From an uncultured Candidatus Cloacimonadota bacterium (GTDB lineage: Bacteria; Cloacimonadota; Cloacimonadia; JGIOTU-2), in assembly GCA_964398885.1 (NCBI GenBank), contig CAYNOU010000003.1, positions 997 through 61,090 of the forward strand: DNA of 60,094 nt. Reading direction: 5' to 3'. Every line of letters begins with the position of its first letter. The stretch's first letter is position 1. The translations under genes and the position numbers were made by a program. Below the pieces are notes generated by a model that saw only the letters and a list, made by a program, of their open reading frames with translations, did not search any database and was not told where the DNA came from. This document shows, one piece after another, positions 17,901 to 52,731 of the stretch.

Positions 17901-19878
17901 AGATGGGAATATGTATACCAACTATGATGCAGATAATCACTACTTTGTAATAGAATGGTCTGAGTGGAGCAATGTTTATAATCCTGAACTAAAGGAAACA
18001 TTTGAAGTTATTTTATATGACCCTGAATTTTACGCTACTGCATCAGGAGAAGGTGAAATACTTTTTCAATATAAAGAAATATACAATGTTGATCAGGAGG
18101 AAAATTATGCTACAGTAGGCATAGAAAACGAATCCCAGACTGATGGATTATTGTTAAGTTATGCTAATATTTGTTCGCCAACAGCACATCCTTTACAAAA
18201 TGAAACAGCCATATTATTCACAACCAAAGAAAGTCCTACCATTCCTTATTTAACTGCTGAGCCAGGAGCCGTAACTGTTTCCATTCCGTCAGGCACCTCC
18301 ATTAGCCAAAATATTTCTCTTGTAAATAATGGGGAACCCGGCTCTAGCTTGACTTATACAATCACTCTTTCACATTTCTTCAAAGGTTCGGGAGTCTTAG
18401 ATGGGAAAAGCGGAAAAAGTATTGAAAACGATTTCATCATCAGTGTTACAAATGAGTATATTCCTATTATGCCAATGGATATCAACTTTTATCTATATCA
18501 TAATAGTCCTGATAATGAGCCTGTCTATGGGGCAAAGATAGATTTTCCTCCAGGATTCTTTGTAAATAATTCAACAGATATTGGTCCATTAAGTTATAAT
18601 AATGAAACAGGTGATGGGGTGGAAGTAAGTTGGGGATTTGATAATGGTGAGGTTTTATCTGCGACAGGAGTTTATGGGTTTATTGTAAATGTTACCATTG
18701 ATGAAAGTCATACAGAACCAATTGAGTTGGATTGGTTCATACAGGGTGATGGCACTGGGGCAGAACCTCATACACAAAATGGAACAATTACTATAGCACC
18801 AACGAGTGATTCTTATCTCTGGTTAACATATCCTAATGGTGGAGAAAAGATGGTCTATGGTTTGGCAGATAGTATAAAATGGCAACATTATGGAGATATT
18901 GAAGAAGTCAATATAAAACTATCTTTTGATAATGGTTCTACATGGCAAATGTTAGCTGAAGAAGTTGCTAATACTGGATTTTATGAATTCATTGTTCCCG
19001 GCCCATTATCTGATGATTGCAAAGTCAAAATCAGTTCTATTGATGGGTCTGATTATGATATTTCTGATGATGTATTCCAAATTACTGCTTTAAATATTGA
19101 ATATCCAAATAATGGTGTAATAATGGTCTATAATACCCAGGATACTATAAAGTGGATAGATTGTGGCGGGATTGACAAAGTGAATATTGAGTTATCAAGA
19201 GATAATGGCTTTATCTGGGAGACGCTTGCCAGTGAGGTTGATAATACTGGTTTTTATGAATTTACTATAACTGGTCCTCCATCAGATGAATGCAAAATAA
19301 AAATAAGCAGTTTAGATGGCCAGATTTTTAATATCTCTTCTGGTTTATTTAGTATAGTTGATTCACCGATTTATTGGATAATTCCTAATCAAATAACTGG
19401 TTCAATTGCTGGAGAGCAAACCAAGGAGATAACCGTAACCATTTCAAGTGAAGGTTTACAAATTGGAACTTATCAAGCTTTTATTAAGATTACAACTAAT
19501 TTAGGTCAGATAGTTGATATACCAGTAACTTTAAATGTAATTGAATCAGATGTAGAGTACAAATCAAAACTTTTTCAGAACTATCCCAATCCCTTTAGTC
19601 ATTCAACAATAATATCTCTTAGTTTAGCCACCAGTCTTCGCTACGCTACGCCCCGGCAGGCAGAGAACGCACAAGTAACAATTTATAACATAAAAGGGCA
19701 ACTTATAAAAACTCTCATCCCAATCCCGATAAATCGGGATGACAAATTTCAAATGACAAATGTAATTTGGGATGGAAAAGATGAAAAGGGCAATCCTATA
19801 AGTTCAGGCTTATACTTTTATCAACTTAAAATTGGGAATAAAATAATTGATACAAAGAAATGTATTTTGTTAAAATAA
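14920..19878 (+). pseudogene. Gingipain-like C25 peptidase with T9SS-type CTD, interrupted by one in-frame TAG (17521-17523)
   Basis: Propeptide and C25 motifs (IIGD, GRIS, SITCG, YNLLGDP). The same frame continues open after the TAG (ELTFSIPIG...) through the 17734 ORF to the CTD. Confidence 0.8.
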
Positions 19879-19934
19879 TTATTGAGTAATAAGAGTTTAA
19901 CAATAATAGGTATATCACATAAAATCAAAAATAA

Positions 19935-19970
19935 TATTTCTTGACTAAAAGAACTAAATTTTAAGAAATA
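19935..19970 (+). promoter_or_regulatory. Duplicated promoter/operator-like site (copies at 21839-21876 and 30913-30948)
   Basis: TATTTCTT...AAGAAATA inverted repeat overlapping TTGACT, upstream of an AGGGAGG RBS in three paralogues. Confidence 0.55.
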
Positions 19971-19996
19971 ATTAAAAGAAAAAGGGAGGCTTATCA

Positions 19997-21838
19997 ATGA
20001 AAAAGAAAATATTATTCTTGTTTATTGTAATTATATTAATAGGTGCAAAGTTCTCTTTTGCAGAGACAAACATTGCTGTTAAAGATACAATTTATCCTCC
20101 ACCTAATAATTTTGATGCAGTAGAAGGTTGGTATTCTATTCATCTTAGTTGGAATGAACCATCTCAAGGAAATTATAACCTAATTGGTTACAATTTATAT
20201 CGTGAAGATATTGGATTATTATTCTTTTTAAATGACATAACTTATCGATATTATTTTTATAGCGATTATATGGTTTTTTTAGGAACAGAATATACATATT
20301 GGGTGACAGCAGTATATGAAGAAGGAGAGTCTGAACCATCGAATTCTGATTCAACAATACCTTGGACTAATATTTATTGGTGGGAGGATTTTGGGATAGA
20401 TTATCATTTAATGGGTTGGACCGAGGAACCGGATACTTCTAACTGGTATTGGTCACCTGGGTATGCTCGTTTCAACTGGTCACCTCCGGTAATAAACTTT
20501 GACCATTCCCTTATCTCACCTAAATTCATTATTCCTGAATTTTCAACAAGCTGGGAAATAACTTTTTCAATGTATGCCAATGACTATCCTGAAGACTCAG
20601 GTGAGGTTTTTGAGATTATTATTGTGCATGATTCCTTAGAAGATGTTATCTGGCATTGGGATATGGATGATAATGATGATTGGGGTAGTCCAGGTGGTAC
20701 AGATTTTGTATATGAGAGTATAAATCAGTATAATGGAGAATTATGCCAGTTCAAATTCCGAGCCTATGGTGATAGTACTTATAATATCAATTATTGGTAT
20801 ATTTATTCGATATCTTCATATATAGAACTCCAGCCAGACTATGGGGCTTTAGTCGGAAGTGTTACAGAAGGTCCGGGATTTCCCATTGAAGGTTTTGCTG
20901 TTCATGCTGAGGATATCGATTATGGAAGCATATATTATAATGTATTAACAGATGAGAATGGTGAATATGCAATCAACCCAATGTTACCCGGGATATATTA
21001 TGTTTTGTTTACGAAAGAAGGATATTCTAATTTTGAGACTATTTTGGAAATACCTCCAGGTGATACTATTACATTGGATCTTATTGGTTGTATAGATATT
21101 TTAACTGTAATCCCAGAATTTATTGATACAACAATTAATATATATGAAGTTTTTACTACTAACCTAACAGCTAAAAATAATGGGATAACACCATTTGATT
21201 GGTTTGCTTATATCAATTTTAATAAGGAATTAAATGAAGGTCCAAATTGTATTGAAACATTATCTCTAAAAGAAATGAATAAATTTATTTTTAATCCTAC
21301 TATTCCTTCAAAACACACTCATCAAGATTCTTCCTGGTTATTTATTTATCCAAGTTCTGGGACACTTGAACCAGGAGATAGTTCTCTCATTGAATTAACA
21401 TTTGATGGAACTGGTCAAACACAAGGAACAGTCTTAACAGCTGATATTATATTTACCTCTGATCCAGATATTGGCACAGTCATAATTCCAGTTACACTAA
21501 CTATCACAGAATCAGGTGTTGATGATGTTCCTGATATATCTACAAAATTAAATCATAACTTCCCTAATCCATTTAGTACTTCAACCACAATTGTATTTAA
21601 TTTAGCCACGAATTTACACGAAAATACACAAATAATCATTTATAATTTAAAAGGACAATTAGTGAAAATTTTGGAGTGTGGAGAGTCTCTCTCCACAAAA
21701 GCTACGGAGGCACTTTACTCTTTATCCTGGGATGGAAAAGATGAGAATGATAAGCCAGTAAGTTCGGGCATTTATTTCTATCAACTTAAAATTGAAGAGG
21801 AAATAATTGATACTAAGAAATGTCTTTTATTAAAATAA
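19997..21838 (+). CDS. Secreted FN3-like/adhesin-like/carboxypeptidase-regulatory-like protein with T9SS-type CTD (paralogue 1)
   Basis: Signal peptide, LSW..P...GYNLYR FN3 pattern, TDENGEY motif, CTD. Confidence 0.8.
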   Translation: MKKKILFLFIVIILIGAKFSFAETNIAVKDTIYPPPNNFDAVEGWYSIHLSWNEPSQGNYNLIGYNLYREDIGLLFFLNDITYRYYFYSDYMVFLGTEYTYWVTAVYEEGESEPSNSDSTIPWTNIYWWEDFGIDYHLMGWTEEPDTSNWYWSPGYARFNWSPPVINFDHSLISPKFIIPEFSTSWEITFSMYANDYPEDSGEVFEIIIVHDSLEDVIWHWDMDDNDDWGSPGGTDFVYESINQYNGELCQFKFRAYGDSTYNINYWYIYSISSYIELQPDYGALVGSVTEGPGFPIEGFAVHAEDIDYGSIYYNVLTDENGEYAINPMLPGIYYVLFTKEGYSNFETILEIPPGDTITLDLIGCIDILTVIPEFIDTTINIYEVFTTNLTAKNNGITPFDWFAYINFNKELNEGPNCIETLSLKEMNKFIFNPTIPSKHTHQDSSWLFIYPSSGTLEPGDSSLIELTFDGTGQTQGTVLTADIIFTSDPDIGTVIIPVTLTITESGVDDVPDISTKLNHNFPNPFSTSTTIVFNLATNLHENTQIIIYNLKGQLVKILECGESLSTKATEALYSLSWDGKDENDKPVSSGIYFYQLKIEEEIIDTKKCLLLK

Positions 21839-21898
21839 TATTTCTTGACTGTAAAACTTAAATTTTTTAAGAAATAATTAATACAAAAAGGGAGGCTT

Positions 21899-24469
21899 AT
21901 GATGAAAAGGAAAATATTATTCCTGTTTATTATAATTATATTAATAGGTTCAAAATTCTCTTTTGCTGAGACAAACATTGCTATTAAAGATACAATTTTT
22001 CCTCCACCTAATAATTTTGTTGCTCAAGGATGGGGATCATGTATCTTCCTAAGCTGGGACCCACCAGATCCTAGTGGATATAATCTCCTCGGATATAATC
22101 TCTATAGGGATGATATTGGGTATATAGGTTTTATTCCTATAGAGCCAAGAGTATTTATAGATGAGTTAGTCATCATAGGGGTAGAATATACTTATATGCT
22201 GACTGCATTATATGAAGAAGGTGAGTCAGATCCCGTAACAGCTTCAGCAACACCATATCTCTCATGTGGTTGGGAAGAAGATTTTGTTGTTGATTGGCAT
22301 TTAACAGGCTGGACAACAGATCCTGTGAGTCCTAATAATTGGGAATGGGATTCTGGTTACGAAGCAGCAAAATTAAACTGGTCACCCTCAGTACCCAATT
22401 ATGATATGTCTTTGATATCTCCACAATTTGTTTTACCTCAAGATTCAACTCATATATTTGATTTAACAATAAATATGTATATAGATGATTATAGTGCAGA
22501 TTCAAGCGAAGTGATGGAAATATGGATAATTCATGATGGACAGGAGACAATGATATTTGAGTGGGATTTGGATGAAAACGATGACTGGGGTTCTTCAGGT
22601 GGAACAGATTGGGTATATTCCGATATGGATCAATTCGCAGGGGAGACAATTCAATTGAAGTTCCGTTCACATGGTAGCGATACATTCAATTTTAATTACT
22701 GGTATATTTATATGGTATGGTTTGATTTCATATATATTCCTGATTATGGTGCATTGCAAGGAACAGTTACGGATGGTTCTGGTAATCCTCTTGAAAATGT
22801 TTCTGTGCATGCTGAAGACAATATAGGAGGAGTTCCATATTACAATGTTTTAACAAATGAAGCTGGTGAATATTCTATAGACACTATGATGACTGGAACA
22901 TATGATATTACTTTTGAATTAGAACACTATAATGTTATGGTTGAAGAAGATGTTGAAATTCTTCCTAATCAAACTACGACACTAAATATGATAATGACTG
23001 CACCTACAATGTCAATATATCCAACTTATATAGATACGAGTATGGTTCCAAATACCCTGCTTACAGTCTATCTGACAATTAGCAATGATGGTGATGGACC
23101 ATTACATTGGTTTGCGAATATTGTATTTCCAGAGTTATTGAAAAGAGATATCCAGAATTTCATAAATGTATCATTCCCCAAAGAAAAAATAAAATTAGAT
23201 AACACTCCAATTGATCGTCCAAGTTATGTAGAGGAATGTCCTTATCAAACAACTTCAAATTATCCCCCTACAAAGGATATCTTGGATTTATTATTTGCGT
23301 ATGATGTAGATACTCCTTCTGGAGGGATAGGTATAGCAGGAGCAGAATTTGGCAATGGATATTTCTTAGTATCAGAGTGGGGTCATTCAAGCAGGAATGT
23401 ATTCAAGTTTGATGTAAATGGCAACTATATTAGCAGTTGGGAACCGACATGGATACAAGGACCAACAGGCTTAAGAGATATGGCATTTGATGGAGAATAT
23501 TTCTATGGTTCAAATGCAGAAAATACGATATACTCGTTTGATGAAGATGGAAATCTACAAGGCACAATAAATTCACCAGCAGCAGTAAGATCAATTGCTT
23601 ATGATGAGGATAATGATGCATTCTGGGTAAATAACTGGAGTTCAGATTTAAAGCTTGTAGATAGGTCAGGTAATGTGCTTAATACTATATTCGCACCACC
23701 AAGTATGTATGGTTCAGCTTATGATAATATAACACCTGGTGGACCGTATCTCTGGATATTCACAGGCACTTCTACTGGAGCTGGATGTCAGGTAGAGCAA
23801 TATAACCTTAACACCTTAGCTCTTACAGGAGTAAGCCATAGTGTAAGTGGAGATTTTCCTGGCACAATAGCTGGTGGTTTGTTTGCATCAGGAGATATTG
23901 TACCTGGAAGATGGGTACTTGGAGGATTAGCTCAAGGTACACCTGATATCTTGTTCGGTTATGAGCTTGGTTATTGGCCACCTCCTCCACCTCCAATGCA
24001 AGGAATAATAGAAGCTGGACAAAGTTATGATTGGCCACTTAGAATGAATAGTGCTGGTCAAACACCAGGAACAATCTTAACAACTGATATTATATTTACA
24101 TCTGAACCAGATGTGGGCACAATTACTATTCCGGTTACACTTACTATAATAGGATCAGGTGTTGATGATGTTCCTGATATATCTACCAAATTAAACCAGA
24201 ACTATCCTAACCCTTTTAATTCTTCTACAATGATTTCTTTTAATTTAGCCACAAAATCACACGAAAAAGCACAAATAAAAATTTATAATATTAAAGGGCA
24301 GCTTGTAAAAACTTTTACACCAATGACAAATGACAAATGTCCAATGACTACAATTGAATGGGACGGCAAAGATGAAAATGGCAAACCAGTAAGTTCAGGT
24401 ATTTATTTTTATAGACTAAAGATAGGTGATAAAGTTATAGATACCAAAAGGTGTTTGCTTTTGAGATGA
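21899..24469 (+). CDS. Paralogue 2, with an extra ~240-aa propeller-like block
   Basis: Same signal peptide and domains as the 19997 gene, plus a GLRDMAFDG/SIAYD repeat block and CTD. Confidence 0.8.
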   Translation: MMKRKILFLFIIIILIGSKFSFAETNIAIKDTIFPPPNNFVAQGWGSCIFLSWDPPDPSGYNLLGYNLYRDDIGYIGFIPIEPRVFIDELVIIGVEYTYMLTALYEEGESDPVTASATPYLSCGWEEDFVVDWHLTGWTTDPVSPNNWEWDSGYEAAKLNWSPSVPNYDMSLISPQFVLPQDSTHIFDLTINMYIDDYSADSSEVMEIWIIHDGQETMIFEWDLDENDDWGSSGGTDWVYSDMDQFAGETIQLKFRSHGSDTFNFNYWYIYMVWFDFIYIPDYGALQGTVTDGSGNPLENVSVHAEDNIGGVPYYNVLTNEAGEYSIDTMMTGTYDITFELEHYNVMVEEDVEILPNQTTTLNMIMTAPTMSIYPTYIDTSMVPNTLLTVYLTISNDGDGPLHWFANIVFPELLKRDIQNFINVSFPKEKIKLDNTPIDRPSYVEECPYQTTSNYPPTKDILDLLFAYDVDTPSGGIGIAGAEFGNGYFLVSEWGHSSRNVFKFDVNGNYISSWEPTWIQGPTGLRDMAFDGEYFYGSNAENTIYSFDEDGNLQGTINSPAAVRSIAYDEDNDAFWVNNWSSDLKLVDRSGNVLNTIFAPPSMYGSAYDNITPGGPYLWIFTGTSTGAGCQVEQYNLNTLALTGVSHSVSGDFPGTIAGGLFASGDIVPGRWVLGGLAQGTPDILFGYELGYWPPPPPPMQGIIEAGQSYDWPLRMNSAGQTPGTILTTDIIFTSEPDVGTITIPVTLTIIGSGVDDVPDISTKLNQNYPNPFNSSTMISFNLATKSHEKAQIKIYNIKGQLVKTFTPMTNDKCPMTTIEWDGKDENGKPVSSGIYFYRLKIGDKVIDTKRCLLLR

Positions 24470-24531
24470 TAAAATATTACTAGGCACTTTCCCTGAAATG
24501 TCCATTTATAATTAAAGGATATTAGTAATAA

Positions 24532-27500
24532 GTGAACAATAAAACAAAATTACTTATCTTAATTGGCTTTGTATTTATCCTTTGTTTTTCAAATAATCTT
24601 TTTGGGGTTTTCAACTCACGGGAAGAGATTATTGAAAATTTTGATGATGGTGAAGTTGAACTGCTTTCTTATCCCGGAGAAGATGAAGACCCGGATGACT
24701 GGGCTTTGGACTCAACTATTACCTACAATAACTCACCATACTCACTTAAACTTTTCGGAAATACCTGGAAAATAGAAATGATTGAACCTACTGTAGTTGA
24801 TTCTGACGATGTCTGGCAAGTTTCTGCTTATGTACAAACACTGGGAGAAATTCAAGGTTTTGGTGTTATGGATTCTACCAATGTTTTGTTGTATTCTCTC
24901 GCTGGAACAGAGGAGCTAAATATTGAAGAATGGGTAACTGTGTATCAAGGTACTTTTCCATTACAGACCTGGAATATTTATCAACTTCCAATTGCAGATG
25001 ATTGGTTTGCATGGTTTGATTATTTGCCTTTAATTACTGGTATAATTTTCATAAATGATAGAGATGTGACTCCAACCGGAATAGTCTATTTTGATGAAAT
25101 CATAAATATAACAAATGATTTACCAATTCCTCCTCAAGTTGAAATAAGCTATACCATTGGAAAGATTTATAGAAATTCCAAAGGAAAGAGAAGTGTGGAT
25201 GTCCAATTTTACGGAGAGGTTTTTGACCCAGACAGCGATGAGCATCAGTTTTTCTGGAATTTCGGAGATGATTCAACAAGCACTGAACAAAACCCTTTCC
25301 ACACTTTTTTAGTTCAAGATGACCATCCTTACACTGTATTGTTAGAAGTTGTGGATGATACTGACTTATGGGGACAGGCGACTTGCCAGATTGAAGTTGA
25401 CCCTGGTCCTACTACTTTTCCCATAACAATGAATTTTATCGGCGATATTATGCTTGCAAGAGGTTATGAACAAACAATTATTCCTAATCAGGGAGTAGAG
25501 GCTATATTTGAACCTACTCTTTCTATACTGGGAGAGGCAGCTGATATTACAGTTGCTAATCTGGAGTGTCCTCTTACTACTTATAATGTGCATCATCCCA
25601 CAAAGCCTATCTATTTTAGAGGCTCTCCTGAAAATGTGGCTGGACTTGTCTATGCAGGGATTAATGTGGTGAATCTTGCCAATAACCACATTCTTGATTA
25701 TATGCTACATGGAATTCAGGAAACACAATCTGTTTTAGAAGAGAATTGTATTGCCTTTTCTGGTGCTGGTGCAAATTCTTACGAAGTATATTTGCCACTT
25801 TTCTACTCCAAATCTGGTATAAGTATTGCTTTACTCGCTTCAAGTGACAGAACAGGTCAATACAATAATTATCAACCATATCTGAATGCTGGTTATAATA
25901 AATCAGGCTTTGCTTATATGACACCATATTACATAACTCAACAAATAAATGCTATTGAGGATTATGCTGACCTTATAGTCGTAGAGATGCATGCAGGTAG
26001 TGAATATTCATTATCTCCAGGCAGTAATTATGATAAATCCGATGTGTTTGCAGGTTGGGACCCTGAAGATTTTAATGAAGATGAAGATTATACACCTCGT
26101 ATAGATATTCCTCATATGTGGGATATTGCAATCAGGCATTTTGCTATTGATTCAGGAGCAGATTTAGTTATCTGTCATCATCCACATATTATTCAAGGTT
26201 TTGAAGTATATAATGGAAAATTGATTGCTCATTCTTTGGGAAATTTTGCCTTTGACCTAAGCTATGCTGAAACTTTCCCATCAATGATTCTAAATGCAAA
26301 AATCAATGAAACGGGATTTTATGAATATTCAGTCACCCCAGTTTATATTGATGATTGGATTCCTGTTCCTGCACAGGGAGAGTTGGGCATTTATATTTTA
26401 GACTATCTTGCGAGACGCTCAAAAGATTTAGGAACTTATCTATATGTTGATAGAGAAAATATAACTGCAGACATTATATTGGATACAATTAATATGGAAA
26501 TAAATACAGAGATATATGAACAAGATTTTCAATTATATGAGGATGATGGTTTCTGGATATCAAAACCTATGTGTCTCCAAAAAGATGGAAGTATCTCTTC
26601 AATTAATTCTATTACTCCAGCAAACAATTGGGAATATCGTCTTGGCAGGGAAATAATCTGGTTTGGAAATTTTGAAGATGAAGGATGCTCACTCTGGAAT
26701 GTGAACAGTTCAGATGAATGGTATGATAGCACTGAAGTTTATGCCGGTAATCGCTCTCTTTGTCATAGACGCTATCCAGACTCTGGAGATAATATCATTA
26801 CGAATTTTGAGAAAAGAATAAAATGCTATTCAGACACAACAAGTTATTCTCTCTATGGTCATATTAAAACTCAGAATGGTGCAGAGGTGACTGTTGAAAT
26901 AAGGTATTATTATTCCAGATTTGGCTCCTACTATCTTGGTTCTGATGATATTGGAGAATGGATTAGCGGCGATTCTGAATGGACATTCTATCATAATGAA
27001 TTAACTCTTCCAACAAGCACACATTTTTTTGATATTCGTTTGAATAGCAACTGTCCTGATACTGGAGTAGCTTATTCCTGGTTTGACAATGTTGGCATTA
27101 TTGAATGGACAGCATGGCAGCCTGCTGATATGCCAGTGAATATCACAAATCCCAATGACTATTATTTTATTCAAATCAAGACAGATACACAAGAAGAATA
27201 TGCTTTTATCACATATACAGAGACGAATTATGGTGAAGGTCCTCATGTTTCAATTGAAGATAACCTTTTAAGTAAACAAACCAATGGTAGATTATATCAG
27301 AACTACCCCAATCCATTTAGTCCCCGATTTAATCGGGGATCAACCACAATCTCTTTTAATTTAGCCACCAGTCTTCGCTACGCTACGCCCCGGCAGGCGG
27401 AGAACGCACAAGTAACAATTTATAACATAAAAGGGCAACTTATAAAAACTCTCATCCCAATGACAAATGACCAATGTCCAATGACTAAAGTTGTTTGGGA

Positions 27501-27606
27501 TGGAAAAGACGATAATGGTAAATTTGTAAGTTCAGGGATTTATTTATATCAATTAAAATTAGATGATAAAGTTGTTGATACAAAGAAGTGTTTGCTTTTA
27601 AAATAG
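24532..27606 (+). CDS. CapA/PGA_cap metallophosphatase-family protein with PKD domain and T9SS-type CTD
   Basis: PKD motif WNFGD..STEQNP.H; CapA motifs GDIM, NLE, LANNH, HAGSEY, HHPH, SLGNF; CTD. Confidence 0.85.
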   Translation: MNNKTKLLILIGFVFILCFSNNLFGVFNSREEIIENFDDGEVELLSYPGEDEDPDDWALDSTITYNNSPYSLKLFGNTWKIEMIEPTVVDSDDVWQVSAYVQTLGEIQGFGVMDSTNVLLYSLAGTEELNIEEWVTVYQGTFPLQTWNIYQLPIADDWFAWFDYLPLITGIIFINDRDVTPTGIVYFDEIINITNDLPIPPQVEISYTIGKIYRNSKGKRSVDVQFYGEVFDPDSDEHQFFWNFGDDSTSTEQNPFHTFLVQDDHPYTVLLEVVDDTDLWGQATCQIEVDPGPTTFPITMNFIGDIMLARGYEQTIIPNQGVEAIFEPTLSILGEAADITVANLECPLTTYNVHHPTKPIYFRGSPENVAGLVYAGINVVNLANNHILDYMLHGIQETQSVLEENCIAFSGAGANSYEVYLPLFYSKSGISIALLASSDRTGQYNNYQPYLNAGYNKSGFAYMTPYYITQQINAIEDYADLIVVEMHAGSEYSLSPGSNYDKSDVFAGWDPEDFNEDEDYTPRIDIPHMWDIAIRHFAIDSGADLVICHHPHIIQGFEVYNGKLIAHSLGNFAFDLSYAETFPSMILNAKINETGFYEYSVTPVYIDDWIPVPAQGELGIYILDYLARRSKDLGTYLYVDRENITADIILDTINMEINTEIYEQDFQLYEDDGFWISKPMCLQKDGSISSINSITPANNWEYRLGREIIWFGNFEDEGCSLWNVNSSDEWYDSTEVYAGNRSLCHRRYPDSGDNIITNFEKRIKCYSDTTSYSLYGHIKTQNGAEVTVEIRYYYSRFGSYYLGSDDIGEWISGDSEWTFYHNELTLPTSTHFFDIRLNSNCPDTGVAYSWFDNVGIIEWTAWQPADMPVNITNPNDYYFIQIKTDTQEEYAFITYTETNYGEGPHVSIEDNLLSKQTNGRLYQNYPNPFSPRFNRGSTTISFNLATSLRYATPRQAENAQVTIYNIKGQLIKTLIPMTNDQCPMTKVVWDGKDDNGKFVSSGIYLYQLKLDDKVVDTKKCLLLK

Positions 27607-27652
27607 TAAAATATTAATGAATTTTAAGGAAAATAATTAGAGAGGAAATAAA

Positions 27653-28818
27653 ATGAAGAGAATATCTATTGTACCTTTAATTAGCATACTGTTATTATTT
27701 GTACCATTATTGGTAAATTTCATACATGCCGAACAATCATGGCAAGTTACAAATAAACATCGGGATATATGGGGACCTTGGGTAGAAACTCAATGGGGTC
27801 AGGAATATCCTTATAACATACTCTGTCCGCTTAATCCTTATGGAGGTCGCAGATGTATAGTAGGTCTTCTGCCTTTAGTAATAGCACAAATAATTAATTA
27901 CCATAAATACATTAATGATGCGAATTTTGATGATGATGACGATTATTATTCAAATCCTATCTACATTGATGATGACTATGAGATTTATGATTTTCCTTCC
28001 TTTCCAGAATTAAATGTATATCTTGACCAGATAAGAGATTATTATTCTAACAATAACTGTCTTACTGATACCTTGATAGCAGCTTTAAATTTTGCTTGTG
28101 GAGTATCTGTGGAACATCAATATGTTTTTGGTGGAGATATGTTCTAATAAATGCCTGTTCAGCTCTCTTAAATAAATTTGGGTATACTACAGCTAATTAT
28201 ACTCAGGCAATAAATTCAGGTTTTTATTCTGCTCTTTCTACAGATATGATGGAAGCTCGTCCAGCTATGCTGGGGATTTCAGGGTCAGATGGCGGTCATC
28301 TGGTTATTTGTGATGGCTATAACAGTGATGAAGATACTTACCATCTCAATTTTGGCTGGAATGGTGGCGGTGATGGATGGTATTCTCTACCTGCTGGAAT
28401 GCCTTTTGGATTTAATGTTATTAATGCAGCCATAATAAATATTGATAGCCCATCACAGGGTGCAAACGATACCCCTCATCAAGATTTCATTTTTCAGAAC
28501 TTCCCGAATCCATTCAGCAGTTCCACCACAGTTTCTTTTAATTTAGCCACCAGTCTTCGCTACGCTACGCCCCGGCAGGCGGAGAACGCACAAGTAACAA
28601 TTTATAACATAAAAGGGCAACTTATAAAAACTCTCATCCCAATGACAAATGACCAATGTCCAATGACTAAAGTTGTCTGGGATGGAAAGGATGAAAGCGG
28701 GAAACCAGTAGCTTCAGGTATTTATTTTTATAGATTATCCACCAGAGGTGAATCCGCCTCAGGCGGAAAATTAGGTGATAAAGTAATAGATACAAAGAAA
28801 TGTTTATTATTAAAGTAA
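27653..28818 (+). pseudogene. Peptidase C10 (streptopain)-like gene with CTD, frameshifted near 28110-28147
   Basis: First frame has QWGQEYPYN and AQIINYH. Second frame has GHLVICDGY, HLNFGW and the CTD. Confidence 0.8.
28738..28767. repeat. 30-bp TCCGCC-family cassette in frame in a CTD
   Basis: TCCACC-AGA-GGTGAA-TCCGCC-TCA-GGCGGA encodes STRGESASGG. Confidence 0.85.
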
Positions 28819-28863
28819 TGAAAAATGTCAAAACAATAATAATTTAAAAAGGAAGGAAGAAAA

Positions 28864-30855
28864 ATGGGGAAAAGAATTTTTATCATAATCAGTTTATTAT
28901 TTGCCACCGCTATCTCTTTTGCTGATACCCATATCCCTGGTGGAGATGTTAGTGGTATCTGGTCAATTAGTGGTAGTCCGTATTTTATTGATGATGAAAT
29001 AACTATCACTAATGATTCAACTCTTATTATTGGACCTGGAGTAGAAATTATTTTTACAGGACATTATAAATTCAGTATACAAGGTAGATTATTAGCTATA
29101 GGAGCAGAAAATGATACTATTTTGTTTACAGTTAACGACACAACTGGTTTTTCTAACATACAAGTATCAAATGGTGGCTGGCATGGGATTAGATTTGATA
29201 ATACCCCTGCTTCTAATGATTCTTCTAAAATTATGTACTGCAAAATAGAGTATGGTAAAGCTATAGGTAATGGCCATGATAGATATGGAGGTGCAATTTA
29301 TGTAAGAAATTTTTCTAAACTTCTTATTTTATCTAACAGAATAGAGAATAACCTCTCCAGCTTCTATGGTTGTGCAATTTACTGTCATTACTCTAGTCCA
29401 ATTATAGAAAATAATAATATAATCAATAACAATTCAGACTTTACTGGAGGAGGACTTTCTTTATGGTATTCTGATGCAATTGTAAAAGGGAATGTAATAA
29501 GTTATAATTATGGGAATGGAATTTGTACAACTCGTGATTCTCATCCAATTATAATAAATAATATAATTGACCATAATCATCATGCTGGTAACGGGATTGC
29601 ATGCTTTTCTAGCGCTGTGATAAAAAACAATACAATAAGTCATAACGATGGAACTGGGATTTACTGTGGATCCAGCAATATAATTATAGACAATAATGTA
29701 ATATATAACAATGATGGTTATTGTGGTGGAGGTATCCGCCTTTTAATGGGTGAAGATATTATAATTATTAAGAATACTATAGCCAATAATAATGCTGAGA
29801 TTTCTGGTGACGGTATTTATTGTGCAGGAACCAGCCCCAATATTATAAATAATATATTATGGAATAATATGTCTGAAAGTATTTACAATCAAGTATATAT
29901 TACTGATTATTATGATCTTGGTCAAGGTATTCTTTATGAAGCTGACCCAAATTTTTTCTATTCTGATATACAAGGAGGTATAGACGATTTTGTATTTGGA
30001 GGTAACACGAATTATGAGGGGGCATACGAAAACAATATAGATTCTGATCCCAAATTTGTTGATATAATCAATGGAGATTTTCATCTAAGTTGGACAAACT
30101 ACCCAATACTTGACTCAACAAAATCTCCCTGTATAGATGCAGGTGATCCAAATTTGCCATTTGACCCAGATGGAACAATTTCAGATATAGGTGCATTTTA
30201 TTTTGATCAAAGTATATTAGAACTAACTACTTTTATAGCAACTTATGTTGATGATAATATTCTCATCTGCTGGACTACAGCAACAGAGACAGGTGTTGTT
30301 GCTTTTAACATTTATCGTAATACAGAAGATGTTTATCAAACAGCAGATTGGATTAATGTTGATAGAATTCCTGGACATGGAACTACATCTGAACCGAATG
30401 AATATCAATTTGTTGATGATACTTTCGTGCCTGATACTATATATTATTATTGGCTTGAGGTGATAGGGTATTGGGGTGGAACTTATGTCTATGGTTCTAT
30501 TGTATATGTTCCTCCTGTGGATATGGATGAACATAGTTTATGTAACACTTTCTACCTTTCTCAGAACGCCCCCAATCCATTCAATACTTTAACCACAATT
30601 TCTTTTTCAACCACGAATTTACGTAACTCGTCCGCCAACTGGCGGAGATTACCACAGATAAAAATATATAATATCAAAGGTCAGCTTATAAAACAATTCA
30701 TAATTCATCCCGATTATAATCGGGAAAAAATTAATGAAGTTAGGTGGGATGGAAAAGATGAAAATGGCAAACCAATAAATTCAGGCATTTACTTCTATCA
30801 ACTTAAAATTGGGAATAACATAATAGATACTAAGAAATGTATATTTTTAAAATAA
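28864..30855 (+). CDS. Secreted right-handed parallel beta-helix protein with T9SS-type CTD
   Basis: Asn-rich I.NN.I..N...GGGI repeats, SPCIDAG, DIGAF, CTD. Confidence 0.85.
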   Translation: MGKRIFIIISLLFATAISFADTHIPGGDVSGIWSISGSPYFIDDEITITNDSTLIIGPGVEIIFTGHYKFSIQGRLLAIGAENDTILFTVNDTTGFSNIQVSNGGWHGIRFDNTPASNDSSKIMYCKIEYGKAIGNGHDRYGGAIYVRNFSKLLILSNRIENNLSSFYGCAIYCHYSSPIIENNNIINNNSDFTGGGLSLWYSDAIVKGNVISYNYGNGICTTRDSHPIIINNIIDHNHHAGNGIACFSSAVIKNNTISHNDGTGIYCGSSNIIIDNNVIYNNDGYCGGGIRLLMGEDIIIIKNTIANNNAEISGDGIYCAGTSPNIINNILWNNMSESIYNQVYITDYYDLGQGILYEADPNFFYSDIQGGIDDFVFGGNTNYEGAYENNIDSDPKFVDIINGDFHLSWTNYPILDSTKSPCIDAGDPNLPFDPDGTISDIGAFYFDQSILELTTFIATYVDDNILICWTTATETGVVAFNIYRNTEDVYQTADWINVDRIPGHGTTSEPNEYQFVDDTFVPDTIYYYWLEVIGYWGGTYVYGSIVYVPPVDMDEHSLCNTFYLSQNAPNPFNTLTTISFSTTNLRNSSANWRRLPQIKIYNIKGQLIKQFIIHPDYNREKINEVRWDGKDENGKPINSGIYFYQLKIGNNIIDTKKCIFLK

Positions 30856-30970
30856 TAATTTGAGTAATAGGAGTTTAACCTCAATAAGTATATCAAATAA
30901 AATCAAAAATAATATTTCTTGACTATAAAATCTAAATTTTAAGAAATAATTACAAGAAAAAGGGAGGCTT

Positions 30971-32806
30971 ATGATGAAAAGGAAAATATTATTCCTGTTT
31001 ATTATAATCATATTAATAGGCGCAAAATTCTCTTTTGCGGATATGAATATTGCTATTCAAGATACAGTTCTACCACCACCAAATGATTTTAATGCATCCG
31101 GAGAAAATGGTTGTGTTAATCTTAGTTGGGATGAACCATCTCAAGGAAATTATAACCTTATTGGATATTATCTATATCGGAGCGATCCTGGGAGATATGT
31201 ATATTTAGATAATACTCAAAATACATATTGTGATTATATGGTTTATACAGGAATTGAATATACATACTGGGCAACAGCAGTATATTCAGAAGGAGAATCA
31301 GTAAATTCTAATGTAGATACTGCTACATCATATATTCCTAGTTGTTTTTATGAAACATTTTATGAAGATTGGCATTTAACTGGGTGGAGAGCAGTTCCAT
31401 CAAGTCCGAATAATTGGGAATGGGATTCTGATTGTGAAGCAGCAAAATTAAACTGGTCACCATCAGTTACCAATTATGATATGTCACTCATTTCTCCAGA
31501 AATATGGATACCCTATGGAGCAACTTTCATTAGTTTAAATGTAAATATGTATATACATGATTATGCTACAGATTTTGGAGAAGTGATGGAAATATGGATT
31601 ATTAATGGGGGACAAGAAACTTTGATATTTGAATGGGATTTGGACTATAATGGTGATTGGGGTTCACCAGGTGGAACTATTTGGGAATATTGCGATATGT
31701 CTCAATATGAAGGTGAGACAATACAAATTAAATTCCGTTCACATGGAGGTGATACATATAATTTTAATTATTGGTATATTTATGATGTAACTGTTGGCTA
31801 TGCTTGGGTACCATCTTACTACGCTACATTGGTAGTAACAGCAACTGATAGTTCTGGTAATCCCGTAGAAGGTGTTACTGTTAATGCTGTAAGTACTCAA
31901 TGGGATTTGTATTATAATGCTTATACAAATGAAAATGGAGAATTCACAATTTTCCCAATGATACCTGGTGATTACTGGTTTACTTATTATATTAGTTATT
32001 TTTGTCCAATAGTAGAAGTGGTTAATATTCCATCATCCAGTACTTTAAATTTCGAGATGTCTTCTTTGTCTACAATGTCAATATCACCTACCTGTATAGA
32101 CACAATTATGGCTCCTGATGATAGTATTGTAGTATATCTAACAATACAAAATTACAGAGATGTACCTATACATTGGTTTGCGGATATTGTAAATTCTGAT
32201 TTGAATAATGCGAATAATACGGTTTTTATAAATACTTCAAACTCAAAAGATATAGAAATGAATTTGAAAAGAAAGGCAAGTAGTTCTTTCTATTCTAATG
32301 ATAGTTTATTTTGTCTTTCTACAACTACAACACATGGAATTATAGCACCGGGACAAAGTTTTGATTGGCGCCTACTGTTAGACACTACAGGACAAACACC
32401 TGGAACAGTATTAGAATTTGATGTTGTGTTTACATCTGATCCAAATGTTGGAACCATCATTGTCCCAGTTACAGTCACAATAATTGAAGAAGGGATTGAT
32501 GATATACCTGATATATCTACCAAATTAAACCAGAACTATCCCAACCCCTTTAGCACTTTCACCACAATTTCTTTTAATTTAACCGTCCCGATGATAATCG
32601 GGAAACAAACGCGAATAAATATTTATAACATTAAAGGTCAGCTTGTTAGATATTTCGCAATCCGCAATCCGCAATCCGAACTTACAAAGGTTGTCTGGGA
32701 TGGCAAAGATGAAAATGGTGATACAGTAAGTTCAGGCCTATATTTTTATCAATTAAAAATTGATAATAAAATAATAGATACAAAGAAATGCTTGATTTTG
32801 AGATAA
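30971..32806 (+). CDS. Paralogue 3 of the FN3/adhesin-like CTD protein
   Basis: Near-identical signal peptide and shared blocks (AAKLNWSPSV.NYDMSLISP) with the 21899 gene. Confidence 0.8.
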   Translation: MMKRKILFLFIIIILIGAKFSFADMNIAIQDTVLPPPNDFNASGENGCVNLSWDEPSQGNYNLIGYYLYRSDPGRYVYLDNTQNTYCDYMVYTGIEYTYWATAVYSEGESVNSNVDTATSYIPSCFYETFYEDWHLTGWRAVPSSPNNWEWDSDCEAAKLNWSPSVTNYDMSLISPEIWIPYGATFISLNVNMYIHDYATDFGEVMEIWIINGGQETLIFEWDLDYNGDWGSPGGTIWEYCDMSQYEGETIQIKFRSHGGDTYNFNYWYIYDVTVGYAWVPSYYATLVVTATDSSGNPVEGVTVNAVSTQWDLYYNAYTNENGEFTIFPMIPGDYWFTYYISYFCPIVEVVNIPSSSTLNFEMSSLSTMSISPTCIDTIMAPDDSIVVYLTIQNYRDVPIHWFADIVNSDLNNANNTVFINTSNSKDIEMNLKRKASSSFYSNDSLFCLSTTTTHGIIAPGQSFDWRLLLDTTGQTPGTVLEFDVVFTSDPNVGTIIVPVTVTIIEEGIDDIPDISTKLNQNYPNPFSTFTTISFNLTVPMIIGKQTRINIYNIKGQLVRYFAIRNPQSELTKVVWDGKDENGDTVSSGLYFYQLKIDNKIIDTKKCLILR

Positions 32807-38298: not shown

Positions 38299-38502
38299 TC
38301 ATCTGATTATGACCATCTTTTTAACTTCACTATAATTTTTGGTTTTCAATTGATAGAAGTAAATGCCATTTCCAAGTTGCCTTCCATTCTCGTCTTTTCC
38401 ATCCCACGATATGGAGTTAAGCGACTCCCGTGAAGTCGCTTTACTCCTACGGGGTAGGCATGTCGCTTTTGCATTAATCCCTATAATATCGAGACGCTCC
38501 AA
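38299..38502 (-). pseudogene. Orphan C-terminal half of a T9SS-type CTD
   Basis: ISWDGKDENG..GIYFYQL..KKMVIIR preceded only by repeat-derived sequence. Confidence 0.7.
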
Positions 38503-38508
38503 AATTAT

Positions 38509-48828: not shown

Positions 48829-51800
48829 TTGAGAACTAAATTATCTGCTTTAATAGTATTTATTCTTTTATTTGTATTTACTACAAATGTAAGTGCAGAT
48901 AAAAATCCAATAGCAATTTTAGAATCAAATTTTGACTTTCTTATTCTGCAATTTGATTTAGGTGAATATCAAATTGACCATTTTAATAATTTTACTGTCA
49001 TAAAAGGAGCACATTTTTCATATAACTACAAAGAAGGTGCAGCAAAACTTCCTGAATTAAGTTTTATTATTGGAATTCCATCTAAAGGGAATATATCATT
49101 CAAAACATTTGATAAGAAAACTTCAAAAATTCCTCTTAAAAATCCTATATTACCGTATCCAGAATATGTTCAAGAAATTGGGGAAAAAACTTGTCATATG
49201 ATTTATAAGATTCAACCAGACATATATTATAACTCACTTTCACCAAGAGATATTGATTTAACCGAACCGTATATCTGGAGAAACCAAAGAGTTGTTAAGC
49301 TAATAATTCATCCTTTTCGGGCTGAGAATAACCAGTTTATTATAACATCAGAATTTAGGATAAGAATAGATTTTGGAGGAAGTGGTCGCATAAAATCAGA
49401 ATTTAAGGATAAGAATTTTGAAAATGTTTTTAAAAACACAATTATTAATTTTGATATTGCAAAAAATTGGTCAATTACTCGCAAAAGAGATATTCCTGAT
49501 AATCCCTTTTCTCACGCTGATAGATGGTTTAAAATACCAATAACGCAAGATGGAATTTATAAGATAACCAAGCAAGAATTAAAAAATGCAGGCATTGATG
49601 TTGATAATTTAAATCCGGAAACAATAAGAATTTTTAATGGCGGAGGTTGCTCATTAGATAGAGATAGTTATACAGGACCATCAGATTTAGATTCAATCCC
49701 AATTTTTTTATCTGATACTGATGATGGATTTCCAATATACTTCTATGCTCGCGATACTGACGGAATTGAAATGAATAGAGAGTATTCCCAATATTATAAT
49801 CCTTATACTCCTACAAATATATATTGGCTTACATATAACACTGATTTGGGTATTAAAAAAAATATTCCATCAGAACCTAAAACTACTTTACAAAACAGAA
49901 GTTCTAAAGAAACCCTAAATATTTATCATTATAAAGAACATCTTGAAGAGGAAAAGATAAGATCAGAACCTAATGGGCTAAAATGGTTTTGGTATAATTT
50001 TTCAGGAACTGGAAGTAATATAAAAAGTATTGAATTTTCAGTTTCAAACCTAATTCAAAATGAAAATCAAGAGATTAGGTTGAAATTTAATACAAGCCCA
50101 AGTTCGGGTTATATCAACTTTAAACTTAATAATGAAGAGATTACATCTTCTTCGACTGGGGGTGGTTCTATTATTTTCAGTGGTAATTTTTTACAAAATG
50201 GAAATAATATTTTAGATATTTATTATTCCGGATCGAAAAGTCTATATTTTGACTACTATAACATAGAATATGATAAAAATTTATCTATGGTAAATAATAG
50301 AGTGGCATTTCCTCTACCTGAAATTAATACTACTTATGAAGTTGAAATTAGCAATGTCCTGAATAATGAATTACAGATTTTTAAAGTTTATGATTTTGAT
50401 AATGTAGAGAGAATTGATAGCTTATATTTTGAAAGTAATAAAGTATATTTTACAGATTCCATAAATAATATTGATATAAAATATTTTGCTGTTTGTCAGG
50501 GTGGATACTTATCACCTTCTCAGATTATTGAAAAGTATAAGCCGGAAGTATATTATTCATATAACGAGAATGGTCAAATAATTGGAGAAGATAAGTCTTG
50601 TTATTTGCGAGATAACATAGAACTTGCAAATACAGATCTTATTATTATCTGTCCTGAAGAATTTTATGAAAAATTAAAAGAATTAGCTAACTTTCATAGT
50701 GAAATTGATAGCATGACTGTTCTGGTTACAAAATTAGATGATGTCTATGATGAATTTTCATGGGGCTTACCTGATGTAGTTGCAATTAGATACTTTTTAC
50801 ATTATGCATTTGACTATTATGGGGCGGATTCTAGGCATAATGTTTCTTATGTAATTTTAGCAGGAGATGGCACAAATGATTTTAGAAAGTATGAAGCCAT
50901 AACTGGTGATAAAAATAAAATTCTCCCCTTTATCAAAGGAACTACTCCATTGGATGATAATTATGTGTGTTTCAGTTCAAGTAATCCAGAAATGATGATT
51001 GGAAGAATTCCTTGTCAAACACAAACGGAATTAGAAATAGTTATTGATAAAATAGTTAACTATACAACAAGTCCTAATTATGGTTTTTGGAGAAGTCGTG
51101 TAATGATTTCTGCAGATGACTTTCTTAAAGATGGTCACCACTACGAGACAGGGAATACTTACAATGCTGAGATTTTATCTTCATTAATAGAAAACAATAT
51201 TGAGCTTATTAAGATTTACGGGATTGATTACCCACTTGATGAATTTCGCAATAGGCCAGAAGCAAATGAAGCTATAATTAAGACTATAAATAATGGGGTT
51301 GGAATATTCGTTTATCTCGGTCATGGAGGTTACGATCTCCTTGGAGACGAAGATTATTTTCGTTCCAGTGATATCTCAAAACTTAATAATTCTGATATGC
51401 TCCCATTTTTCTATGCTGGTTCATGTAATGTTGGTCATTTTGATTCTAATACTTTTGAATCAATGGCTGAAAAGATGCTTCTTGCTAAAAACAGGGGAAC
51501 AATTGCTTCATATGCATCTTCTCGCGGAGGTGGCTTTGGTGATTACGAAGATATCATTTCAGAATTAGTTAATAAGCCAGATGAAGGAATAAGAATCGGT
51601 GAAGCTATAATTACATACACTTTTAATCAAATGTATAACCTTTTTGGGGATCCAGCCGTTAGATTGGTTATACCTCCGAGGGCTGGAAATCTAAAAATTC
51701 CAGAAAGTTATCCAGACTCTCTAAAAGCAAGACAAACAGCTAACATAATTGGTAATATAAATAACCCAGATAATCAGTATGAGCAAATCTTCGCAGTTAC

Positions 51801-52731
51801 TTATGATACGGATTATTCAACCACTTATCTTTATGAAGATGAAGTGGAAGATGTTTGGGTTTGGTTTGATATTGTATTTACTACAAAGGGCAAACCAATA
51901 TTCAAAGGTCCAATTTCATGTTCTCAAGATTCATTCTCTCTTCATTTCATCGTTCCAGATGATATTTATGGAGGTTCTAAAGGTCATATTCTTGCATATG
52001 CGGTTAATACTGATAAAACAAAAGATATTCTTATGTCATATCACAAGCAGTCCAGTCCTAACAATCATAATTTGATTATAAATGGATATAGTGATGCAGT
52101 AAATGACGGTCCTCCTCTAATTAATATCTGGCTTGATAGAGAAGAGTTTAAAAACGGTGATTATGTTTCAGCAACGCCAACACTCTTTGCAAACATTTCC
52201 GATTCTAACGGAATAAATATTACAAATTATCCTGGGCATAGGATTCTTCTTACAATTGATGGTTATTGCGAAGAAAACATAACAGATTATTTTGTATACA
52301 ATGCTGATTCTTACACAGACGGAGCAATTGAGTATAAAATAAACAATTTAAGTGTAGGTAGTCATCAACTGAAATTAGAATTATTTGATAATTTTAATGA
52401 GGGTGCCAATAAAGAGATAAGTTTTAAGATAAAAGAAACCACTAATATAAAAGTCAGCAAAGTTCTCAATTATCCAAATCCGATGAAAAATCTTACCTAT
52501 TTCACATTTTATTTGGATGGAGATGCGGTAGTGGATATTGAGGTCTTTACTATCTCAGGCAAGAAGATAAAGACGATTAGTGATAAAATATGCCAGCCTG
52601 GATATAATCAAATTTTTTGGGATGGAAAAGATAATGAGGGGGATTCTCCTGCAAGTGGTGTGTATTTCTATAAAATCATTCTTAATTCTAAAAGAGTTAA
52701 TAATGTTTATAAACTGATAATATCACATTAA
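48829..52731 (+). CDS. porU: PorU-like T9SS sortase (C25 family) with CTD
   Basis: DGIYKI, VYDEFSWG.PD..AIR, YLGHGG (His), GSCNVG (Cys), SDSNGIN and VLNYPNP motifs. The TTG start is uncertain. Confidence 0.8.
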   Translation: MRTKLSALIVFILLFVFTTNVSADKNPIAILESNFDFLILQFDLGEYQIDHFNNFTVIKGAHFSYNYKEGAAKLPELSFIIGIPSKGNISFKTFDKKTSKIPLKNPILPYPEYVQEIGEKTCHMIYKIQPDIYYNSLSPRDIDLTEPYIWRNQRVVKLIIHPFRAENNQFIITSEFRIRIDFGGSGRIKSEFKDKNFENVFKNTIINFDIAKNWSITRKRDIPDNPFSHADRWFKIPITQDGIYKITKQELKNAGIDVDNLNPETIRIFNGGGCSLDRDSYTGPSDLDSIPIFLSDTDDGFPIYFYARDTDGIEMNREYSQYYNPYTPTNIYWLTYNTDLGIKKNIPSEPKTTLQNRSSKETLNIYHYKEHLEEEKIRSEPNGLKWFWYNFSGTGSNIKSIEFSVSNLIQNENQEIRLKFNTSPSSGYINFKLNNEEITSSSTGGGSIIFSGNFLQNGNNILDIYYSGSKSLYFDYYNIEYDKNLSMVNNRVAFPLPEINTTYEVEISNVLNNELQIFKVYDFDNVERIDSLYFESNKVYFTDSINNIDIKYFAVCQGGYLSPSQIIEKYKPEVYYSYNENGQIIGEDKSCYLRDNIELANTDLIIICPEEFYEKLKELANFHSEIDSMTVLVTKLDDVYDEFSWGLPDVVAIRYFLHYAFDYYGADSRHNVSYVILAGDGTNDFRKYEAITGDKNKILPFIKGTTPLDDNYVCFSSSNPEMMIGRIPCQTQTELEIVIDKIVNYTTSPNYGFWRSRVMISADDFLKDGHHYETGNTYNAEILSSLIENNIELIKIYGIDYPLDEFRNRPEANEAIIKTINNGVGIFVYLGHGGYDLLGDEDYFRSSDISKLNNSDMLPFFYAGSCNVGHFDSNTFESMAEKMLLAKNRGTIASYASSRGGGFGDYEDIISELVNKPDEGIRIGEAIITYTFNQMYNLFGDPAVRLVIPPRAGNLKIPESYPDSLKARQTANIIGNINNPDNQYEQIFAVTYDTDYSTTYLYEDEVEDVWVWFDIVFTTKGKPIFKGPISCSQDSFSLHFIVPDDIYGGSKGHILAYAVNTDKTKDILMSYHKQSSPNNHNLIINGYSDAVNDGPPLINIWLDREEFKNGDYVSATPTLFANISDSNGINITNYPGHRILLTIDGYCEENITDYFVYNADSYTDGAIEYKINNLSVGSHQLKLELFDNFNEGANKEISFKIKETTNIKVSKVLNYPNPMKNLTYFTFYLDGDAVVDIEVFTISGKKIKTISDKICQPGYNQIFWDGKDNEGDSPASGVYFYKIILNSKRVNNVYKLIISH

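Follow-up and report, generated by a model that had tools for sequence, protein, structure and literature searches.

Short tandem arrays of 7-nt units, with several unit sequences per genome, are known from cyanobacteria as short tandemly repeated repetitive sequences (STRRs) and are mainly intergenic, and the type A C-terminal domains (CTDs) of type IX secretion systems (T9SS) are removed by PorU in Bacteroidota. Among dispersed palindromes, the Rickettsia palindromic elements (RPEs) are found in frame in intact genes, are translated and, according to the passages of PMC10969869 drawn on here, are thought to lie where the protein fold tolerates them. The GTAG/CGTC repetitive extragenic palindromic sequences (REPs) are short GC-rich stem-loops, mostly extragenic but in some cases wholly within open reading frames (ORFs), and a neutral placement of the intragenic copies in linkers and loops has been suggested (Di Nocera 2013, PMC3733652, in the passages on these elements). 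As a case study, we consider here a stretch of 60,094 nt (the window, G000:C3:997-61090) from the 2.56-Mb draft genome (33% GC) of an uncultured salt-marsh bacterium of the Cloacimonadota, where palindromes and 7-nt arrays encode the variable peptides of T9SS-like CTDs in seven consecutive genes. With a probability of about 0.6, we read these CTDs as probably cleaved tags of which only the fold matters, the loops of which tolerate and retain repeat modules that gene conversion then spreads.

Compared with the T9SS type A CTD (TIGR04183/PF18962), the domains studied are likewise C-terminal, have PNPF, GQLV and K..LLL-type motifs and a predicted beta-sandwich fold, and belong to a genome that encodes SprA and PorU; unlike the known hosts, which are Bacteroidota, the host here is one of the Cloacimonadota, repeat modules enlarge the loops, and three of the seven domains either fall under the TIGR04183 cut-off or are not matched. 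Four loops are concerned: L1 after PNPF, L2 after T.ISF, L3 between GQLVK and WDGKD, and L4 after FY.L, at the tip of the last beta-hairpin. As with RPEs, the palindromes are dispersed and translated: the CCCGA..TCGGG hairpin has 263 intergenic and 24 CTD copies, the latter in intact ORFs and in loops modelled with a low predicted local distance difference test (pLDDT) score. RPEs, as characterised in parts of PMC10969869, are set apart by size and description, since they measure about 100-150 bp, have a conserved peptide and occur in many unrelated genes, whereas the modules here measure 14-30 nt, are read in any frame and are concentrated 6- to 17-fold in one domain family and four fixed loops. 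Intragenic GTAG/CGTC REPs occur in varied genes, many of them for replication or repair (PMC3733652, same passages), and not in a secretion tag as here, and the CCCGA hairpins mostly lack the GTAG/CTAC tag (23/263 intergenic and 4/24 CTD copies have it at most 6 nt from the stem), with no linked REP-associated tyrosine transposase (RAYT) found among the Y1 genes examined. Whereas STRRs are mainly intergenic, the heptamer arrays of this genome are densest in the coding loop L3, where they are translated.

In-frame palindromic repeats being already known as RPEs and intragenic REPs, their harbour in secretion-tag loops is a variant of the Rickettsia-type elements, and the least expected element is the heptamer-coded loop L3. 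A full-text literature search found no paper joining the T9SS CTD with palindromic elements or T9SS with heptanucleotides, none of the listed matches for Cloacimonadota palindromic repeats was on topic as far as titles and the starts of abstracts go, and the parts of PMC10969869 and PMC3733652 considered mention no secretion-tag hotspot, although a CTD host may be among the intragenic REPs tabulated in the supplement to PMC3733652.

The seven genes lie in tandem on the plus strand between 14920 and 32806 (stops at 19878, 21838, 24469, 27606, 28818, 30855 and 32806), with diverse passenger domains (C25 peptidase, CarboxypepD_reg/fn3, PGA_cap/PKD, C10 peptidase and beta-helix) followed in each case by about 100 homologous residues. 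The scaffold of NYPNPF, T.ISF, IYNIKGQL, WDGKD and DTKKC that the first-pass annotation had described is common to all seven ORFs, and every variable peptide that it had listed was recovered in its place by codon alignment. Using this alignment and the list of hairpins, we could trace eight variable peptides to perfect or near-perfect GC-rich palindromes, in spite of the low GC content of the genome, with CCCGAT..ATCGGG and TCCGCC..GGCGGA among the types, and Tandem Repeats Finder showed that period-7 arrays (ATGACAA, AATGACA, CCAATGA twice, CGCAATC) make up L3 in five of the seven CTDs. CTD 1 (19576..19878), the tail of the C25-peptidase gene, has in L2 a 37-nt GC-rich module (19633-19669) that encodes TSLRYATPRQ, and in L3 both the hairpin ATCCCGATAAATCGGGAT (19723-19740), read as IPINRD, and a heptamer array (19739-19762, 3.4 copies of ATGACAA). 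L3 of CTD 2 (21554..21838) contains TGTGGAGAGTCTCTCTCCACA (21677-21697; ECGESLST), a module known from CTDs and without intergenic copies, and L3 of CTD 3 (24197..24469) consists of a heptamer array (24322-24348, 3.9 copies of AATGACA, read as PMTNDKCPMT) without a hairpin insert. CTD 4 (27298..27606), the tail of the PGA_cap/PKD protein, carries TCCCCGATTTAATCGGGGA in L1 (27321-27339; PRFNRG), a second copy of the 37-nt module in L2 (27370-27406) and an array in L3 (27457-27485, 4.1 copies of CCAATGA). The third copy of this module (28552-28588) is in L2 of CTD 5 (28495..28818), which ends a frameshifted C10-peptidase gene and also has a heptamer array in L3 (28639-28667) and a double hairpin in L4 (28737-28768) that gives STRGESASGG. 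In CTD 6 (30562..30855), the tail of a beta-helix protein, SANWRR in L2 comes from TCCGCCAACTGGCGGA (30631-30646) and HPDYNRE in L3 from TCCCGATTATAATCGGGA (30708-30725), while CTD 7 (32531..32806) has VPMIIG in L2 from TCCCGATGATAATCGGGA (32586-32603) and a perfect heptamer array in L3 (32656-32678, 3.3 copies of CGCAATC) that encodes AIRNPQSE. All seven perfect GC-rich hairpins between 14900 and 33000 are inside CTDs and none is in passenger DNA.

Chance was rejected as the origin of the CTD repeats, since 246 CCCGAT-stem hairpins are observed in the genome against 1.16 expected and the CTDs are enriched genome-wide. An SLRYATPRQ-type module, preceded as in CTDs by the TTAGCCACC codons, is also found within an intergenic repeat stack at C44:20400-20500, and a tandem array of a unit of about 31 nt (GGCGAAGCGTAGCGAAGACGGATTTAGTCTC-like), interrupted by a run of N, at C97:2391-4330 is related to the L2 module. 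Counts of 10-mers over the CTDs gave no discrimination, AT-rich words being common everywhere, and blastn-short searches of the CTDs against the genome chiefly recovered paralogous CTDs.

Genome-wide, 153 C-terminal CTDs were collected; their MAFFT-based alignment profile has 109 positions and replaced an hmmalign-based model that had inflated to 155. Hairpins were defined by a perfect stem of at least 6 bp, a seed of at least 4 G/C and a loop of at most 8 nt, which gives 1234 in the genome. The first-pass annotation had staked its idea on a higher repeat density in CTDs than in other coding DNA, and the idea survived. CTD DNA has 1.00 GC-rich perfect hairpin per kb (46 sites in 45,966 bp), compared with 2.35 in intergenic DNA, 0.157 in passenger domains, 0.162 in other coding DNA and, for genes without a CTD, 0.242 in the first and 0.123 in the last 300 nt. 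The excess over all other coding DNA (0.17/kb) is 6.0-fold (p=3e-20) and rises to 10-fold for stems of at least 7 bp, and repeat density in CTDs is 8-19 times that of the last 300 nt of non-CTD genes. CCCGA..TCGGG occurs at 24 CTD sites, and the remaining coding DNA, 2.16 Mb in size, has 66 (17-fold, p=5e-20); two AT-rich control hairpins, at 0.6-fold, show no enrichment. With Tandem Repeats Finder, period-7 arrays of at least 2.8 copies number 25 in CTDs (0.544/kb) against 39 in the 2.16 Mb of other coding DNA (0.018/kb), an enrichment of 30-fold (p=2e-25), whereas all other periods pooled are enriched 1.5-fold.

Within the 153 aligned CTDs, all 47 hairpins are in the four loops (26 in L3, 10 in L1, 6 in L4 and 5 in L2), which make up 37% of CTD DNA, and L3 also has 24 of the 25 heptamer arrays. 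Of the 153 CTDs, 39 have one or more perfect hairpins and 52 have one or more perfect modules. The density of hairpins in the loops, 2.8/kb or about 1.26 sequence classes per kb, is close to or below the intergenic 2.35/kb and therefore fits a sink. The first-pass annotation had also called for mapping of the inserts on a structure: two AlphaFold2 models of CTDs (mean pLDDT 76.8 and 72.2) predict a small beta-sandwich of six long strands, in agreement with the seven-stranded sandwich of type A CTDs, with the inserts between strands and in the blocks of lowest pLDDT, and in one model the 10-residue L4 insert lengthens the last beta-hairpin. The ORFs that carry inserts are intact. Best Foldseek matches of the models are PorZ (5m11, E 9e-5) and PorU (6za2, TMq 0.66), and the translocon-bound CTDs 8glk_D and 8gl6_D are matched as well. 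Judging by the order of the strands, we would expect L2, L3 and L4 together at that pole of the sandwich which points away from the passenger.

Relatives were sampled as 446 kb from ten genomes, around CTD matches. In G006, which belongs to another genus, hairpins reach 0.70/kb in 31 CTDs against 0.11/kb in coding DNA (p=6e-4), and 10 period-7 arrays are found in these CTDs against one in 115 kb (p=1e-10). The effect is weaker in a further genus (seven genomes; p=0.01 for stems of at least 7 bp and p=0.006 for period 7), in line with its lower intergenic hairpin load of 0.51/kb; two more families gave 7 CTDs in total, below a testable number. The modules of relatives use identical loops, and the L3 peptide class KIQN[SL]K[FL]KI, from AAAATTC-type heptamers, recurs across genera. 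Of 232 genomes of the phylum, 5, from two genera, have the L1 junction of NPF[NS] followed by CCCGAT-NNN-ATCGGG (the reversed control pattern occurs in none), and this hairpin family is therefore young and lineage-restricted.

As the same palindrome occurs in different frames and loops, insertions must have been repeated. Translation of TCCCCGATTTAATCGGGGA yields PRFNRG where it lies in L1 and VPDLIGD where it lies in L3, TCCGCCAGCTGGCGGA gives LRQLAD, VRQLAD, SASWRT or QSASWRM in L2 or L3, another palindrome is read both as SPIYSGT and as QPPIYSGV, and a single loop can be occupied by different hairpin families. Kinship could in principle account for the pattern if a few old insertions had been multiplied by duplication and gene conversion of this 150-member family, without CTD loops being more permissive or attractive than coding loops elsewhere. 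The same insert is indeed found at the same place in many CTDs (NPD[IKE]IGT in 6, CGESLST in at least 6, PMTNDQCPMT in 6), the CTDs are clearly mosaic, parts of them have been swapped between orthologues, and orphan 3' halves stand behind other genes. We nevertheless hold such a spread by kinship only to be unlikely, since about 21 loop-plus-sequence classes are distinguished, one palindrome appears in different frames and loops, different families share a loop, and the effect scales with the intergenic repeat load of each genome. Enrichment also stays significant when only classes are counted, at 7.8-fold for the CCCGA family (p=6e-7), 2.7-fold for all hairpins (p=7e-5) and 8.4-fold for heptamers (about 7 classes, p=4e-5).

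Exchange between CTDs has left several kinds of trace. The segment around IYNIKGQL is 100% identical in CTDs 1, 4 and 5, whose neighbouring segments are 63-86% identical, and other pairs in the array match in their first or last segments only. Within the outer stem GTG..CAC, the hairpin core has been replaced, with GAGAG..CTCTC in one CTD gene (o386) and TCCGCCAGCTGGCGGA in another (o6235). At 38301..38508, on the minus strand, an orphan CTD 3' half (profile positions 48-104) that follows immediately on the stop codon of a gene unrelated to it (called end 38512) starts with L3-type hairpin modules (AAGCGAC..GTCGCTT) and is read as a recombination remnant; orphan halves that start at L3-type modules were found behind unrelated genes elsewhere in the genome too. 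At C62:15261-15651 the CTD end of a cargo gene is duplicated across a stack of hairpin modules. From the mosaic CTDs, the orphan halves, the duplicated end and the core replacement, it follows that recombination at or near the loops is partly the cause of tag variation, and gene conversion between paralogous CTDs supplies much of it.

That the CTD is a cleaved tag in this genome is plausible because homologues of PorU and SprA exceed curated cut-offs, cleavage in the phylum being an assumption: a PorU-type T9SS sortase homologue is encoded at 48829..52728 on the plus strand (571 bits, cut-off 420) and the SprA homologue reaches 585.8 bits (cut-off 200). TIGR04183 (cut-off 23 bits) accepts four of the seven CTDs (35.0, 35.8, 28.8 and 29.7 bits), scores two at 22.3 and 22.0 and does not list that of gene 24532-27606; the three below or missing are those with the SLRYATPRQ insert in L2. 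PF13860 (FlgD_ig) passes in six of the seven and PF18962 in one. In type A CTDs of Flavobacterium, conserved motifs specify the fold, while the contact surface is poorly conserved and the binding pocket plastic (Lauber et al. 2024, PMC10994853, section 7).

The genome is rich in short non-coding modules, chiefly 7-nt tandem arrays and GC-rich palindromes that measure 14-30 nt. On the reading that we prefer, whatever process spreads them from one intergenic site to another would occasionally place a copy in a gene. Such coding insertions would be lost almost everywhere and would survive in loops L1-L4 of the CTD, a domain that may need only to fold as a small beta-sandwich, enter a plastic pocket of the translocon and be cut off, which would leave its loops nearly unconstrained. 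Palindromes, which have few stops in any frame, would be translated as 5-10 extra residues; purifying selection on the reading frame would keep the modules legible; and the roughly 150 paralogous CTDs would hand them on to one another by gene conversion whose breakpoints fall at loops or close to them, possibly with the modules taking part.

Several points weigh against this reading. The genes come from a simple home-made codon-usage caller (2128 genes, 86% coding), which is crude, and the profile that found the 153 CTDs was seeded from the window's own. As the CTDs are paralogues, sites are not independent and raw counts overstate the number of events, and the roughly 21 classes rest on manual grouping of the hairpins. 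Loop tolerance by itself does not explain the near-absence of modules from passenger domains (4 CCCGA hairpins in 306 kb), many of which are also beta-sandwiches with loops. The best PorV-like match has 147.5 bits, below the cut-off of 250, and cleavage and secretion of the CTD as well as the mechanism of insertion are presumptive. Among the Y1 transposase genes examined, none has CCCGAT hairpins on both sides and no transposase link to these hairpins was found. The GGAGAG..CTCTCC hairpin behind ECGESLST has 9 copies in the genome, 6 of them in CTDs and none intergenic, and is for this reason a feature of the CTD family rather than a dispersed genomic repeat. Finally, heptamer arrays reach 3.6/kb in L3 (about 1.05 classes per kb) against 0.20/kb in intergenic DNA (0.201/kb by Tandem Repeats Finder over the whole genome), an excess that a pure sink does not predict.

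The view of the inserts as collected repeats thus stands for the GC-rich hairpins that are dispersed between genes and fails for the ECGESLST hairpin. For the heptamers, the arrays do encode L3 peptides, but they are denser there than in intergenic DNA and fall into about 7 sequence classes common to paralogues and other genera, so that they look as if they had arisen or been retained in place rather than landed as cassettes. A preferential origin in place is possible, and we would explain the excess, as a hypothesis, by a periodicity that decays more slowly where selection acts at the protein level and codons are AT-biased; translation of an L3 array has a period of seven residues, as in KIQNSKF-KINEV. 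Between the sink and the diversification that the first-pass annotation had offered as alternatives, the evidence leans to the sink without settling the matter.

L3 might also be a dedicated site of exchange and slippage at the DNA level, its arrays and hairpins serving as junctions at which the distal half of the tag is swapped and perhaps as a one-unit off-switch, a proposal that we regard as distinctly unlikely. Were it true, it would allow a bacterium that has about 150 T9SS cargoes to re-sort or silence individual surface proteins with the passengers untouched. If the loops are recombination junctions, this would explain why mosaic tags evolve fast beside slow passengers.

The orthologues of gene 24532-27606 illustrate this difference in rate, with passengers of 920 aa that align at 89-91% identity with no gap and CTDs at 71% identity with 1-3 gaps. 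Its PRFNRG hairpin is present in the three genomes of the same genus and missing from all 9 orthologues that are more distant, this genome alone has the SLRYATPRQ module, one orthologue has two L3 hairpins, and another (L004) has four copies of ATCCCGA in place of four of CCAATGA. Faster evolution of the CTDs than of the passengers, the persistence of inserts between species of one genus and variation at fixed positions, with L2, L3 and L4 probably at one pole of the sandwich, are what would be expected if the modules served adaptive diversification of the loops, for instance by tuning recognition by a carrier or shuttle, the timing of cleavage or the destination of the cargo. As the same DNA module in different frames gives unrelated peptides, selection is not acting on a peptide; moreover, a perfect module is present in only 52/153 CTDs, degenerate copies exist (such as ATCCCGATAAATAAGGAT in L003), and the contact surface described for Flavobacterium in section 7 of PMC10994853 is unconserved and its pocket plastic. 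Adaptive diversification is thus quite improbable in our estimation.

Slippage of the 7-nt arrays in L3 could make secretion phase-variable, since the gain or loss of a unit would put the last 50 residues or so out of frame and switch export of the cargo off. The 30-fold enrichment of period-7 arrays, with 24/25 in L3 and upstream of the conserved WDGKD..K..LLL strands, would suit such a switch, as would the perfection of some of them (CGCAATC x3.3, GCAAAAG x2.9) and the different units in the same loop, which are compatible with turnover inside the arrays; compared with CTD 4, CTD 1 has an extra 16-nt hairpin and a following stretch that is 7 nt shorter, a net gain of 9 nt by manual count on the codon alignment. 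The arrays are short, however (3-5 units), loop length is constant per class and across genera, and no plain L3 frameshift was found among 27 partial CTD matches, the sole frameshifted CTD (C48) being broken outside L3, and we hold phase variation to be very improbable. Split CTDs were rejected as a sign of it, since most of the 27 partial matches lie at contig ends and the internal ones are orphan 3' halves, the duplicated gene end of C62 and the C48 frameshift. Assembled contigs of four public runs contained no one-unit heptamer variant, but these contigs break or jump between paralogous CTDs and are uninformative on slippage; the only indels listed, 1-2 nt long, fall at 24230-24232 within a single contig of low depth.

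A role of the hairpins at the nucleic-acid level, in cargo mRNA or in the DNA that encodes it (for example 3' stabilisation, pausing or binding sites), which the 47 perfect stems kept within coding DNA and the proposal of REPs as RNA or DNA elements in other bacteria (parts of Di Nocera 2013, PMC3733652) might suggest, is highly improbable given their four different places, their presence in only a quarter of CTDs, their absence from other genes' 3' ends (0.123/kb) and the many degenerate copies.

If the sink and gene-conversion reading holds, selfish short repeats can live inside genes, in a sorting domain that is discarded, and the four loops would be a natural map of the freely variable parts of a T9SS signal, useful for the engineering of secretion tags. 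A protein loop made from 7-nt tandem repeats and kept across genera would be an unusual route by which coding sequence comes from a repeat process at the DNA level. Insert-swollen CTDs that fall under the TIGR04183 cut-off, as do three of the seven here, imply that standard annotation under-counts T9SS cargo.

As for what moves the modules, no RAYT link was found for the CCCGAT hairpins, which have few GTAG/CTAC tags and flank none of the Y1 genes examined on both sides. The genome has 12 Y1_Tnp matches, of which four were classified: on the IS200 model (cut-off 55) they score 50.6-70.2 bits, two passing and two just below, on REP_Tyr_transpos (cut-off 80) they have 23-31 bits or nothing, and the hairpins that flank them are of the CCCAC..GTGGG type. 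Small genes that resemble Y1 transposases (about 180-220 aa, with weak matches to PF01797) are located at C30:15192-15755, C8:18230-18712, C15:14225-14869 and C11:13866-14402, and each of them is flanked on both sides by a private long hairpin, which is the arrangement of a RAYT/REP-type cassette.

Two of the cargo genes in the array are interrupted upstream of their CTDs. In gene 14920-19878, an in-frame TAG at 17521-17523 (…HTLL*ELTF…) parts the C25-peptidase ORF from the CTD-bearing ORF in the same frame, and is either a nonsense codon in one cargo gene of 1650 residues or an assembly error. At 27653-28818, the C10-family peptidase gene is in two overlapping frames, split near 28096-28147, with its CTD intact; the Pfam match of this peptidase covers profile positions 1-103 in the first ORF and 113-194 in the next.

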